DNA from: a virus | Taxonomy: Duplodnaviria; Heunggongvirae; Uroviricota; Caudoviricetes | IMG/VR virus record: IMGVR_UViG_2802429241_000006 | Coordinates: 1-16,232 of that record | Reading direction: 5' to 3' (one strand) | Length of the DNA stretch: 16,232 bases | In this document: piece after piece, positions 3,894-12,661 of the stretch | Layout of the letters: each line of letters opens with the position of its first letter | Position numbering within the stretch: the stretch's first letter is position 1 | Program-made: the position numbers and the translations under genes | The notes under the pieces: model-generated | What the model saw: only the letters and a program-made list of their open reading frames with translations | What the model was told of the DNA's origin: nothing | Databases searched by the model: none

Positions 3894-4016
3894 TTTGTTT
3901 TAACCTCATTACAGATTTAAGGATGAACAAATCCCTGCCATTGCTGGCATATAAGAATCAAATCTGATGTATTCATTAAGCTGAATGTCGTATTGTGGCA
4001 GTTATTTTATTACTGC

Positions 4017-4238
4017 TCACCATGACTCTGCTTTTACAGGTAAACCATCACGACCAAGGAAGACTTTAATCATGGTTTCCTTAATACAGTGTTGTGTGGA
4101 AAAATCACGAATATAGAGCCGTTGTTTTTTAATGTTGTTTACCGAAGCAATATATGTTCTTCCTTTATGAATAACATAATCACCGGGAGTCACGCACTGA
4201 CGAGGAATCTCATCAGTTCCGAAGTGATGAGCAATCAT
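4017..4238 (-). CDS. kilR: KilR-like FtsZ-inhibiting killing protein (Rac prophage type), 73 aa
   Basis: Protein [22 protein letters not shown]...[18 protein letters not shown] closely matches my recollection of Rac KilR. The ORF track extends to 4250 (MEII...), but GGAG lies 6 nt upstream of the internal ATG at 4238, giving the expected 73 aa. Confidence 0.75.
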
Positions 4239-4804
4239 AATTATCTCCATTTTTACAAATGAACTTTGTTGATGCGGTGCCTGGTGCCTCCAGGTGACGT
4301 TAACCAGTTAACAATTAACGCCGGATACAGAGAATCCACCCATAACACTGTTTTTGGTTTTAACTGTTCCGCGTGCGCTTAGCCGCATTCACCGCATCAC
4401 AAAATTCACTTTAAAAAGGGCGGCAGAGCAGTCACGGAGTAAAACTGATACCGCCAAACGCCACCAGAAAATTGATAACAGAGGGCGTTGTAGCGGGGGT
4501 GTCACTTAAGCGTATGGTCAACCTGACAACCCGGTGTCCTCAACGGGGAAGGAATAACCCCGCCATACTTACCGCCGCGCCATTTCGCGGAGTGCCACAA
4601 CCGGAAGCGCACGGTCGACGAAAATTTAACGACAGGCTATCTATGAACCAGCAACCTCGCCGTGCGCTTTCGTGTTATGGTCTGACTTTTCAGGGAAATA
4701 TCCTTTCAGTAAACTGTCAGTGCCGGATGCTCACCCGTGTCCGGCGCACGCACTCCACCTCACCCGTGGAGAACTCCTTAATCACCAACCCTCAGGAGGG
4801 TGAA

Positions 4805-5080
4805 ATGTCGACTGAAAATGATGAAATCATTAACTCCCTGATACGCCAGATTAATAATTTTGATAAAGCATTGCAGCATGCTGCGGCGCGTAGTGATATA
4901 ACTCTTTTAGCAATTTCATTTCTTGCATCTGTTATGGATAAAAATGAAGTCGTACGACAGAGTCTTGTTGATTATATCGACTCGCTTCAACCCGGCACTT
5001 TCAATCATGAGAGCTTCAATCATGAGAAAGAGCATGTTAAATCTGTTATTAATTCTCTTGTTTTGAATCAAAAGAATTAA
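4805..5080 (+). CDS. Hypothetical protein, 91 aa
   Basis: ATG at 4805 preceded by AGGAGG (4794..4799) at 5 nt spacing. Only plus-strand gene in the early-left region. The 111 upstream in-frame codons of track ORF 4472..5080 begin with TTG, lack an RBS and are Arg-rich, so are treated as non-coding. Confidence 0.5.
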   Translation: MSTENDEIINSLIRQINNFDKALQHAAARSDITLLAISFLASVMDKNEVVRQSLVDYIDSLQPGTFNHESFNHEKEHVKSVINSLVLNQKN

Positions 5081-5390
5081 TGCTTTTTGTTGCAAAGTAA
5101 TTTTCAAGGGGTTCTATTCGAATCCCTTTCTTTTTCATTAACAAGCCAAACCCCTTATCAATGATGTTCATTAATTCCAGGAAGTATTTTTCATGCAAAT
5201 CCTGGTTATCAGAGAGTTGCTTCTCTTCGTACAACCCGATAAAGGCGCGACGCACGTTACCGGATATATTATCGATGGTTTCTTTTTCTACGGTACTCAG
5301 GTCAAGAGTCGCCAGTTGGGAACGAACTATATTCGCTGCCATTTCCTGGAATGGTATTGGTAAATCTTTAAATTCCATCGTCAACCTCAT
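5049..5390 (-). CDS. Hypothetical early-left operon protein, 113 aa
   Basis: ORF in the same orientation as, and tightly packed with, neighbouring minus-strand genes (stop of upstream gene at 5394). No recognisable motif. Confidence 0.5.
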   Translation of the reverse strand: MRLTMEFKDLPIPFQEMAANIVRSQLATLDLSTVEKETIDNISGNVRRAFIGLYEEKQLSDNQDLHEKYFLELMNIIDKGFGLLMKKKGIRIEPLENYFATKSINSFDSKQEN

Positions 5391-5393
5391 CAG

Positions 5394-5609
5394 TCAGTAG
5401 TTTTCAATCACTCGTGAAACGTTTAATGCCGCGCTTTTTGCCAGAGTGGTAATATCCTGCTCCGCTGACGCCAGTTCTTTAGAGAGGCGCTCTTTATAGT
5501 CAGCAGCCCGCTTCAGGTCATTAATGGCGCGTATCTTCCCGCACATCCATTCGTAAATTTCATCATCGGTATAGCCTGGTGCGATGATGATGGGTTCTGG
5601 TTTCTGCAT
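5394..5609 (-). CDS. Hypothetical early-left operon protein, 71 aa
   Basis: ORF on the minus strand, closely spaced with the downstream gene; coding-like composition (MQKPEPIIIAPGYTDDEIYEW...). No recognisable motif. Confidence 0.5.
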   Translation of the reverse strand: MQKPEPIIIAPGYTDDEIYEWMCGKIRAINDLKRAADYKERLSKELASAEQDITTLAKSAALNVSRVIENY

Positions 5610-5638
5610 ACTGATTCCTCGCGGTGCTGCTTCGCTTA

Positions 5639-5767
5639 TCAGCCGTTAGATTTTGCCGAGCTGGAAAGCGCCTGTTTAAACTCACTGAAGCTGAGAGCTT
5701 CTTCGCCTTTGGCAAGGCCTTCGAAGTATTCTTCGTAAGCCTTTTCCATGATTGTGTCGAAATCCAT
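5639..5767 (-). CDS. Candidate small ORF, 42 aa (MDFDTIMEKAYEEYFEGLAKGEEALSFSEFKQALSSSAKSNG)
   Basis: ATG at 5767 with AGGTGA RBS-like motif 5 nt upstream. Start lies 2 nt after the stop of the upstream small ORF. Below the track length cutoff. The overlapping 69-aa track ORF in another frame is Arg-rich and GTG-initiated. Confidence 0.3.
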   Translation of the reverse strand: MDFDTIMEKAYEEYFEGLAKGEEALSFSEFKQALSSSAKSNG

Positions 5768-5768
5768 A

Positions 5769-5924
5769 TCACTCACCTGAATTTCTTTCCTGCCAGCGAC
5801 GCGCACCAGATTCGGTTTTAAACGTTTTGCTTTTGGTATACGTCATCGCGGTGAACGTACCGTCCTGGTTTGGGAACACGCCGTACACCAGAGATTCGTT
5901 GTTGCCAAGATCGATAGTATCCAT
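5769..5924 (-). CDS. Candidate small protein, 51 aa (MDTIDLGNNESLVYGVFPNQDGTF...)
   Basis: Internal ATG at 5924 with GAGG 6 nt upstream. The track ORF extends to 6005, but that upstream part lacks an RBS. Confidence 0.35.
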   Translation of the reverse strand: MDTIDLGNNESLVYGVFPNQDGTFTAMTYTKSKTFKTESGARRWQERNSGE

Positions 5925-6216
5925 GTTGACCTCATTTCCCCTTAACGCCGGGGTAGCGGAACAAAAACCTGCTGCATAGTTATTAAAGTTGAACCCTGCC
6001 GTCATGTTCTTACGCCTCGGGCTGGCTACTTACCCCCTGACCACTGCCTGGTAACTCGAAGTATTGCCCTGCATTCTGTGGGATGGGGTGAGGGAATGAA
6101 TGAAGTTTAGAAAAACGAACTTTTCAGGTCAATGTTTTTTTATCAAAACATTTTAGGCAGGCAGCTGTTAAGCCATCACCACGATGGCATACAGTTAATC
6201 AAATAGATGAGGTTGG

Positions 6217-12228: not shown

Positions 12229-12505
12229 GTCTTTGTACGACCATGCAGGCCTTATTGTCTTGCTATTGCTCTTATGGTTCGCCTTTCTGATTGATTTCAT
12301 ATTGGCGAGGTAACGGGAGTTAAGTAGAATGGCTGCGGGTGCTTGAGGCTATCTGTCTCAGGCATGAACACCAAAGGCAGATAGAGAAAAGCCCCAGTTA
12401 ACATTACGCGTCCTGCAAGACGCTTAACATTAATCTGAGGCTCAATCTATGAACGGCAAATCTAGGTTAGCCTCTTACGAGCCGAAAGGCAAGGAGAAGC
12501 AGGCT

Positions 12506-12661
12506 ATGAAGCAGCAAAAGGCGATGTTAATCGCCCTGATCGTCATCTGTTTAACCGTCATAGTGACGGCACTGGTAACGAGGAAAGACCTCTGCGAGGT
12601 ACGAATCCGAACCGGCCAGACGGAGGTCGCTGTCTTCACAGCTTACGAACCTGAGGAGTAA
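12506..12661 (+). CDS. hokD: Hok/Gef-family membrane toxin, 51 aa (HokD/RelF-like)
   Basis: Protein MKQQKAMLIALIVICLTVIVTALVTRKDLCEVRIRTGQTEVAVFTAYEPEE matches my recollection of E. coli HokD (RelF). AAGGAG RBS lies upstream of the ATG at 12506. The track ORF's 19-codon in-frame extension from 12449 is unlikely to be translated. Confidence 0.85.
   Translation: MKQQKAMLIALIVICLTVIVTALVTRKDLCEVRIRTGQTEVAVFTAYEPEE

Follow-up and report, generated by a model that had tools for sequence, protein, structure and literature searches.

A conserved, ORF-free stretch upstream of kilR is the DicF small RNA locus with its flanking folded RNA

The approximately 550 bp located beside kilR in the analysed window (the whole stretch of 16,232 nucleotides of viral DNA) is the known DicF locus together with the flanking folded RNA from which the small RNA (sRNA) DicF is cut, and as such has already been described, the DicF locus having been reported in 1989-1990. 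Taken as a whole, we consider it very probable that positions 4239-4804 constitute the non-coding middle of an early-left prophage operon of the dicBF type, encoded on the minus strand and carrying the Hfq-dependent sRNA DicF, in which a Qin-type part is joined to a Rac-type kilR and in which RNase III would cut within two predicted helices. The sole unusual feature of the locus is the joining of DicF to a Rac-type kilR instead of dicB, which corresponds to a minority recombinant. For a sequence scan the region thus represents a resolved false alarm, this conserved, structured and ORF-free stretch being the DicF locus that most Escherichia coli genomes carry.

Identity of the locus and organization of the operon

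An earlier sequence-only reading of this stretch had considered a regulatory region or a small RNA among its options, and had proposed a search against Rfam. When the window was scanned, this search settled the small-RNA question: the DicF family (RF00039) was matched with 76.4 bits, against a gathering threshold of 48 (E = 1e-15), over model positions 1-52 of 52 and at 4469..4418 of the minus strand. The regulatory option was likewise confirmed, as the minus strand carries the DicF gene with structured RNA around it. The 53-nt DicF sequence (4470-4418, minus strand) shares 52 of its 53 bases with K-12 dicF, differing only by G for A at position 10, which belongs to the 5' part; its ftsZ-pairing 3' part is identical to that of K-12. 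It has been reported that the 3' part of DicF represses ftsZ translation, and hence production of the cell-division protein FtsZ, and that the 5' part represses xylR and pykA (PMC5069750); the A10G change falls in the region used for xylR and pykA, and the target range of this DicF may therefore be shifted. The intrinsic terminator is intact, consisting of a hairpin at 4455-4419, which the Rfam alignment shows as paired, and a UUUUU tract at 4417-4413; it was absent from the list produced by a simple terminator scan, presumably because its loop is larger than the 3-8 nt limit of that scan. Family score, seed and ftsZ-pairing sequence, terminator and operon location all correspond to DicF, with the division inhibitor of the operon being KilR rather than DicB. 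[quoted passage not shown]

The conserved block extends well beyond the sRNA. Over positions 4258-4790 (533 bp), identity reaches 96.8% with the ydfC-dicF-dicB intergenic region of Qin, a prophage of E. coli K-12, and 97.6% with phage Tritos, in which DicF is annotated. Of 5426 complete E. coli genomes, 4730 contain some match to the region, and at least 80% of the region was matched in 3511 of the complete genomes, at a median of two places per genome. As a separate matter of annotation, dicF is left unannotated by PGAP in the RefSeq records examined, K-12 excepted.

The gene order of the operon is repressor, ydfA, ydfB, a ydfC-like gene, orf113, leader, DicF, spacer, kilR, exonuclease, xis and int. 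On the minus strand, tblastn identified relatives of the K-12 proteins YdfA (96%), YdfB (98%), YdfC (56%, hence YdfC-like) and KilR (81%), and an S24/HTH repressor and a P22-Cro-like gene are found beyond the ydfABC-like genes. The DicF match, the identity to Qin, and the presence of the upstream ydf genes and repressor together show the region to be the central, non-coding part of an early-left operon of the dicBF type.

The downstream gene of the operon is kilR (4017..4238, minus strand), encoding a Rac-type FtsZ inhibitor of 73 aa. Its previous designation as kilR proved correct: the product matches NCBIfam NF008465 (140 bits, above the cutoff of 92) as well as PHROG 294 ('Kil protein'), and is 81% identical to K-12 KilR over 73 aa. 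Translation probably starts at ATG 4238, as in K-12, with GGAG located 7 nt upstream, and the in-frame ATG 4250 (the mechanically assigned ORF start) is probably not the start. Positions 4002-4423 are 82.6% identical to K-12 Rac kilR and the spacer upstream of it. As judged from these sequence comparisons, the locus is a recombinant, in which a leader, DicF and spacer of the Qin type are joined at 4251-4257 to a Rac-type kilR. The gene that follows the spacer differs between loci (kilR, dicB or a third gene) and is joined directly behind the 3' strand of the basal spacer helix; among 144 loci, which form a biased sample, we counted 85 DicF-dicB, 27 KilS-kilR and 4-5 DicF-kilR combinations.

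Coding potential and base composition

The stretch had been described as apparently non-coding, a description upheld by the broken state of its open frames in homologues, by the empty Pfam search and by the lack of protein remnants in tblastn. Thirteen stop-to-stop frames of at least 25 aa were listed, the ten longest were scanned against Pfam and PHROG, and 11 of the 13 were checked in homologues, using alignments of 63 sequences for the leader and 82 for the spacer. Every frame tested (at least 25 aa) was frameshifted or interrupted by a stop in at least 13% of homologues, and the longer frames in 43-90%. This includes the long, Arg-rich, plus-strand frame that had been singled out in the sequence-only reading, which is not conserved, being open in 6 of 63 homologues. 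No Pfam match was obtained with the ten longest open frames of the region; two of the scanned frames matched PHROG families of unknown function, which we read as ORFs placed by gene callers on conserved DNA. Protein-coding small ORFs were rejected as a candidate, with none of the 11 checked frames conserved and no Pfam support.

That the stretch could be a decayed gene had also been suggested, and two observations speak for what would be left of a sieB or dicB coding sequence: in a genome of 98.6% identity, the counterpart of 4265-4348 is labelled 'DicB, incomplete' by PGAP, and two open frames have the PHROG matches mentioned above. Nevertheless, tblastn using the K-12 Rac and Qin proteins revealed no remnant of SieB, DicB, YdaF, YdaG or YdfA-D in 4239-4804; K-12 SieB produced only chance hits against the region (E > 2), and the real DicB of K-12 (62 aa) had no match in 3900-6100. 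The sole DicB-labelled match comprises residues 1-25 of an over-extended, 94-aa DicB annotation, at 4339-4265. Additionally, all frames are disrupted in homologues, those of greater length in no less than 43% of them, Pfam is empty, and in one locus (L005) the frame running into dicB has a stop and no start. A decayed sieB or dicB gene was ruled out on the basis of these tblastn searches, and we assign this explanation almost no probability. The PGAP call itself ('DicB, partial/incomplete') represents, in at least one record, a spurious pseudogene on the spacer: it arises because some records annotate a 94-aa DicB starting upstream, within the spacer, and only that extension is matched here.

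Two further statements on the stretch stood in part. It had been regarded as GC-rich, which holds only in relative terms: G+C amounts to 51.4% in the region, compared to 35-39% in the flanking genes and 47.3% in the whole window, with 54.7% in the leader and 41.9% in the spacer. It had also been stated that sieB occupies this slot in Rac, which is loosely correct, given that sieB comes further on, but the stretch immediately beside kilR in K-12 Rac corresponds to the KilS sRNA and a homologous spacer.

Folding and conservation of the leader and spacer RNAs

The description of the region as structured was borne out, as it folds beyond chance. The minus-strand RNA of 4225-4800 has a minimum free energy (MFE) of -218.9 kcal/mol (z = -4.89, with 0 of 100 shuffles as good), and the plus-strand RNA of -189.8 kcal/mol (z = -3.78), the minus-strand fold being 29 kcal/mol more stable. 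It comprises three domains, namely the leader (4790-4471), DicF (4470-4418) and the spacer (4417-4239). The inverted-repeat coordinates given in the sequence-only reading were exact. The motif CCTGGTGCCTCCAGG lies at 4280-4294; GTTAAC occurs twice, at 4299-4304 and 4307-4312, and TTAAC once more, at 4315-4319; CCGCG (4575-4579) and CGCGG (4586-4590) form a hairpin in the leader consensus fold; and GCCGGA (4722-4727) and TCCGGC (4740-4745) are paired only in the single-sequence fold of the window. A long-range pairing of 4605-4613 with 4372-4380, and two more nested complementarities, were discarded as candidates, being absent from the MFE structure and each near chance.

Loci for comparison were gathered from annotated E. 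coli and phage records, and from exact-pattern scans for the spacer motif in species genomes (19 loci) and IMG/VR (120 loci). The alignment for compensatory substitutions that had been proposed in the sequence-only reading gave a divided answer, with a modest signal in the spacer (40 sequences) but none in the leader (63 sequences).

The leader of the DicF precursor (4471..4790, minus strand) corresponds to the ydfC-dicF interval of K-12 Qin and is predicted to form a closed, multi-hairpin domain, with z = -2.65 for the fold of 4405-4800. Its consensus fold contains 61 pairs, 99.2% of which are paired among the 63 sequences. No covariation signal was detected in these sequences (one double change, with 96 of 500 shuffles as good), so the data allow, but do not prove, the leader fold. 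The longest local helix has 13 pairs, 4672-4657 with 4618-4602 on the minus strand (helix 5 of alignment A1, 99.6% paired), and includes an inverted repeat of 92% complementarity (4602-4614 with 4660-4672). Just upstream of the sRNA, a highly conserved hairpin, CCGGGUUGUCAGGUUGACCAUACGCUUAAGUGAC..., spans 4496..4532 of the minus strand (helix 10 of A1, 13 pairs, 99.3% paired); it is kept in loci L011, L012 and L035, which carry non-DicF sRNAs, and we infer that it may guide RNase E. Different prophages lose homology to the leader at discrete points, and many have a truncated leader; some thus lack its distal part, and the full domain may not be needed.

The spacer, running from the DicF terminator to kilR (4239..4417, minus strand), is a structured RNA with a closed multibranch fold, as indicated by folding z-scores, covariation and similarity to a known RNA family (see below). 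Its MFE is -66.4 kcal/mol in the window (z = -5.40), -66.1 kcal/mol in K-12 Qin (z = -5.14) and -63.2 kcal/mol in K-12 Rac (z = -3.88). In 40 diverse sequences, 98.8% of the cells of its 42 pairs are paired, compared to 32-46% when partners are slid; four pairs, comprising 11 cells, are changed on both sides, values matched in 5 of 500 and in 0 of 500 shuffles. The covariation backing this fold in the minus sense is modest but real.

The basal helix of the spacer is formed by a 5' strand at 4390..4410 and a 3' strand at 4258..4279 (both in the minus-strand RNA), with 20 bp between 4410-4390 and 4279-4258 (helix 1 of alignment A2, 99.8% paired); it lies within the inverted repeat 4252-4279 with 4390-4417, and its 3' strand ends approximately 20 nt upstream of the kilR start codon. 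All eight of its variable pairs have one-sided changes to G-U or U-G, which hold only in the minus-sense RNA, and the functional strand is therefore the minus strand. The TTAAC/GTTAAC motifs form a hairpin at 4296..4322 (minus strand; stem 4322-4313 with 4305-4296, loop 4312-4306; helix 4 of A2, 97.2% paired), two pairs of which show compensatory double changes, such as GCGUUAA/UUAACGU to ACUGUAA/UUGCAGU in K-12 Rac. A role of the GTTAAC palindromes as protein-binding or restriction-type DNA sites was rejected, as they belong to an RNA hairpin whose stem displays compensatory changes in Rac, and the middle GTTAAC constitutes its loop. The following CCUGG-AGGCA-CCAGG hairpin (4280..4294, minus strand; helix 5 of A2, 98.1% paired) aligns with CCGGG-AGGCA-CCCGG of the STnc100 consensus. 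Another candidate was an antitermination element of the put or nut type; it was set aside, as the spacer lies downstream of the terminator that would have to be suppressed and no Rfam family supports it.

These data bear on the proposal that DicF is the only functional element, with leader and spacer conserved through the recent spread of a block among Escherichia prophages, as recombination linker DNA in which RNA structure is not selected. The leader fits this proposal in lacking covariation and in having homology that ends at many discrete points, and all combinations of sRNA and downstream gene occur, as expected if the conserved blocks were crossover sites. The narrow distribution of the exact spacer motif agrees as well: in a scan of 185,579 species genomes it was found only in Escherichia/Shigella and in a few MAG contigs labelled as unrelated taxa, which were probably mis-binned. 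The spacer, however, argues for selection on RNA, with compensatory and wobble-only changes matched by 0-5 of 500 shuffles, folding z-scores of -3.9 to -5.4 in three diverged versions, and a variable stretch located between two near-invariant blocks that pair together; furthermore, the published RNase III-dependent species require double-stranded RNA at about these positions. We thus judge linker DNA an unlikely account of the flanks, and favor structured RNA around DicF.

The other border of the region is set by an opposite-strand ORF of 91 aa, which lies at the edge of, and outside, the DicF region (4791..5080, plus strand). Its RBS (AGGAGGG) is at 4794-4800 and its coding sequence at 4805-5080, with the ATG at 4805 and a terminator-like site at 5106-5128 of the plus strand. 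The product has no match in Pfam, PHROG or NCBIfam, no similarity to SieB, and no tblastn match in phages; it is annotated as a hypothetical protein in approximately 200 E. coli genomes. Three different plus-strand ORFs occupy this slot in different prophages, sharing an identical upstream junction and a conserved, identical RBS.

This arrangement raises the alternative that the gene at 4805 has its promoter and a long 5' UTR in the region, the key transcript being a plus-strand RNA antisense to DicF. The shared junction and RBS of the three ORFs are in line with it, and, with every gene upstream of it lying on the opposite strand, the gene at 4805 must be served by a promoter within 4239-4804; a promoter-like site is indeed present at 4308-4335 of the plus strand. 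Nonetheless, the three promoter-like sites found compare with 2.1 expected by chance, and none lies in 4600-4800 of the plus strand; the same 533 bp are present in K-12 and Tritos, where no plus-strand gene adjoins them; and the weaker plus-strand fold (by 29 kcal/mol) is accompanied by helix variation that is incompatible with plus-strand pairing. We regard a plus-strand UTR as a very unlikely principal function, and the minus-strand DicF transcript as the relevant RNA.

Predicted processing and relation to known systems

In K-12, the dicBF operon is transcribed from dicBp, no internal promoter having been found, and most transcripts end at the DicF intrinsic terminator, with RNase E trimming the 5' end to yield the 53-nt form (PMC10448788, PMC5069750, PMC9438474). 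Two additional species depend on RNase III: a 190-nt DicF precursor, produced by cutting upstream of DicF (PMC10448788), and a 72-nt DicF, produced by cutting downstream in read-through transcripts (PMC5069750, PMC9438474). RNase III sites were placed here from the published RNA lengths only; the published numbering (cut at 813/814 in a 1,146-nt transcript) could not be brought into agreement with 190 nt. By arithmetic, 190 nt counted back from 4418-4414 lead to 4607-4603, within the 13-bp leader helix (3' strand), and 72 nt counted from 4470 lead to 4399, midway along the 5' strand of the spacer's 20-bp helix. The calculated ends thus fall inside the two longest predicted helices, positions that would suit a double-strand-specific nuclease, and for sRNA specialists the two reported RNase III-dependent species can be mapped onto two specific conserved helices.

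According to the proposed model, the upstream RNase III cut would occur in the 13-bp leader helix (4672-4657 with 4618-4602), and the downstream cut in the basal spacer helix (20 bp, 4410-4390 with 4279-4258), where a staggered partner cut near 4267-4269 would release a kilR mRNA with a 5' UTR of approximately 30 nt. Expression of kilR, a toxic division inhibitor, would then depend on read-through of the terminator and on RNase III, and the spacer could in this way couple kilR expression to both.

The spacer itself resembles STnc100, a multi-copy prophage RNA of unknown function. A permissive Rfam search aligned the whole STnc100 model (RF02076) at 4231-4416 with 38.3 bits, below the gathering threshold of 47 (E = 4e-7), and the same model gave 34.4, 32.9 and 38.0 bits on three related loci. 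The score falls short of family membership; the architecture, on the other hand, agrees, with a closing helix and two 3' hairpins in register, and an independent fold is concordant. The shared elements are the closing helix (G..UGGUG with CACC..C), a hairpin of the GGGUU...AACUC type and a CCNGG-AGGCA-CCNGG hairpin. From the below-threshold score and the common architecture, we call the spacer that precedes kilR or dicB a distant relative of STnc100 and not a member, an assignment that may be of use to specialists in sRNA. Eleven copies of STnc100 are present in strain EDL933, one of them verified by Northern blot (PMC5331693), and STnc100 has recently been linked by structure to PasD (bioRxiv 10.64898/2026.05.13.724894).

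This resemblance allows for another reading, in which the spacer (approximately 4231-4416) is a trans-acting sRNA of the STnc100/PasD family, and more than a cis processing element or 5' UTR of kilR. The alignment over the whole model, with its E-value and its common helix and hairpins, is in favor, as are the abundance of Northern-verified STnc100 transcripts in EHEC (PMC5331693) and the finding that its structural relative PasD binds Hfq and has RIL-seq targets (bioRxiv 10.64898/2026.05.13.724894). Against it, the score remains under the gathering threshold, the spacer has no terminator of its own and runs directly into the kilR RBS, and the canonical STnc100 and PasD copies are located in the late region, near Q or stx, whereas the spacer belongs to the early-left operon, between the sRNA terminator and kilR. 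We find a trans-acting role doubtful; it can, nevertheless, coexist with the role in processing that we propose for the spacer.

Beyond the present locus, a residual point is that sRNA seeds appear swapped between conserved flanks. We tentatively propose, at somewhat less than an even chance, that Escherichia lambdoid prophages carry leader, sRNA and spacer as one modular sRNA cassette. Two conserved domains, both processed by RNase III, would flank an exchangeable part made up of seed and terminator hairpin, which comes as DicF, KilS or one or more other types. The domain on the downstream side would be a distant relative of STnc100/PasD that acts in cis, as a 5' UTR gated by RNase III, on whichever gene follows, be it kilR, dicB or a third one. 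If true, this would provide the first concrete function for STnc100-like RNAs; in addition, KilS would be the Rac counterpart of the 190-nt DicF precursor, made by RNase III and not from a promoter of its own.

Among known systems, the K-12 Qin dicBF operon shares the leader, terminator, spacer, operon orientation and upstream ydfA/ydfB/ydfC-like genes with the present locus. It differs in the downstream genes, which are dicB-ydfD in Qin and a Rac-type kilR here, and in the presence here of two extra genes between the ydfC-like gene and the leader, namely orf113 (minus strand) and the opposite-strand 91-aa ORF. K-12 Rac, with KilS (b4833), has a homologous kilR downstream (81%), a homologous spacer with the same fold between terminator and kilR, and an sRNA in the same slot. 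With the DicF model, KilS reaches a below-threshold score of 39.1 bits, and the seeds differ, with UGUGUAGUC in KilS and UUUCUGGUG in DicF; moreover, the leader of Rac is much shorter, and sieB, absent here, follows in Rac. A more general likeness is found in the pL operon of phage lambda, where RNase III cuts a long double-stranded RNA stem, as in N-leader processing and in the sib retroregulation of int, and thereby changes the fate of the mRNA of the adjacent gene. The likeness consists of a stem in a leftward early transcript, with no sequence similarity to the lambda sites, and unlike these, the stem predicted here would also define the 3' end of an sRNA.

Composition of the sRNA slot

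The position occupied by DicF in the window (4470-4418, minus strand) was compared with its counterparts, at the equivalent of 4418-4480, in the K-12 Rac locus (L004), loci L006-L012, L035, L114, L121, L137 and L143, and others. Three types of seed were found there, namely the DicF-type UUUCUGGUG, the KilS-type UGUGUAGUC and a third type, CCUUUUGGCGG, and they are combined with several different terminator hairpins. Furthermore, the seed types are found together with every one of the downstream genes, namely dicB, kilR and a third one, and the slot is flanked by the same conserved sequences in every case, whichever seed or downstream gene is present. As judged from these sequence comparisons, the sRNA slot is modular.

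Annotation of the spacer and the adjacent plus-strand gene

In a near-identical genome, the spacer between DicF and kilR carries a RefSeq/PGAP pseudogene call, 'DicB, incomplete'. The stretches concerned are 4265-4348 of the window (minus strand), 5015-5098 of the compared locus L001 and 1297-1581 of locus L009. The call on the spacer stems from a DicB annotation of 94 aa whose N-terminal extension is spurious; DicB proper, of 62 aa, has no match in the spacer region of the window. The dicF gene itself is not annotated in the RefSeq records examined, except for that of K-12.

Upstream of the leader, an identical junction, CCAACCCTCAGGAGGGTGAA(A)TG, is followed by three different plus-strand ORFs of 91, 77 and 92 aa (window 4791-5080, L001 5540-5787 and a third locus, L005, 2040-2335, respectively). 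This position resembles a slot for cargo genes that share a conserved RBS, on the strand opposite to the operon, and a promoter search there gave no convincing site. The 91-aa ORF of the window matched no family and gave no tblastn hit among phage records, and it is present in about 200 E. coli genomes, ETEC H10407 among them.

Other RNA modules and host labels of matching records

A full-length sok antitoxin RNA was found at 12337-12511 of the window (plus strand; it scores 107.7 bits with Rfam RF01794, whose gathering score is 59), overlapped by a 70-aa ORF at 12449-12661 on the same strand. This ORF could be a hok-type toxin gene, in which case the prophage that carries the DicF locus would also contain a toxin-antitoxin module of the hok/sok type. 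In one related locus (L006 1236-1424), the gene 3' of the spacer sits, upstream of dicB, in a region that also has Rfam matches to C4 antisense RNA, at 78 bits, and to isrK, at 69 bits; an immunity or antirepressor module of the isrK/C4 type seems to have been inserted here, between spacer and dicB.

Parts of this Escherichia prophage region display 97.8% identity to Aeromonas phage AP1 (MT713136.1) and 82.5% to Actinobacillus phage vB_Apl-pPE4 (PP818812.1), and the exact spacer motif is present in MAGs labelled Veillonella, Nanosynbacter and Collinsella (contigs L023, L028, L030, L031 and L032). Contamination, mis-binning or mis-assigned hosts most likely account for these records.

Leader pairing and the 5' end of KilS

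Three nested complementarities of 9-10 nt, each close to chance expectation, link the spacer (4319-4380) to the leader (4605-4746) and would enclose DicF; one arm, 4605-4613, is shared with the proposed RNase III helix of the leader. The minimum-energy fold of the 4225-4800 RNA includes none of the three.

In the Rac version of this helix, GGCGCA pairs with UGCGCC. Start-site data suggested that the 98-nt KilS of K-12 Rac (L004 3906-4003) is a primary transcript (PMC8175672). Its annotated 5' end, placed by manual base count on the alignment of loci, falls inside the 3' strand of the Rac helix, at the calculated site of the RNase III cut that makes the 190-nt DicF; therefore, KilS may be a processing product, and perhaps not a primary transcript.
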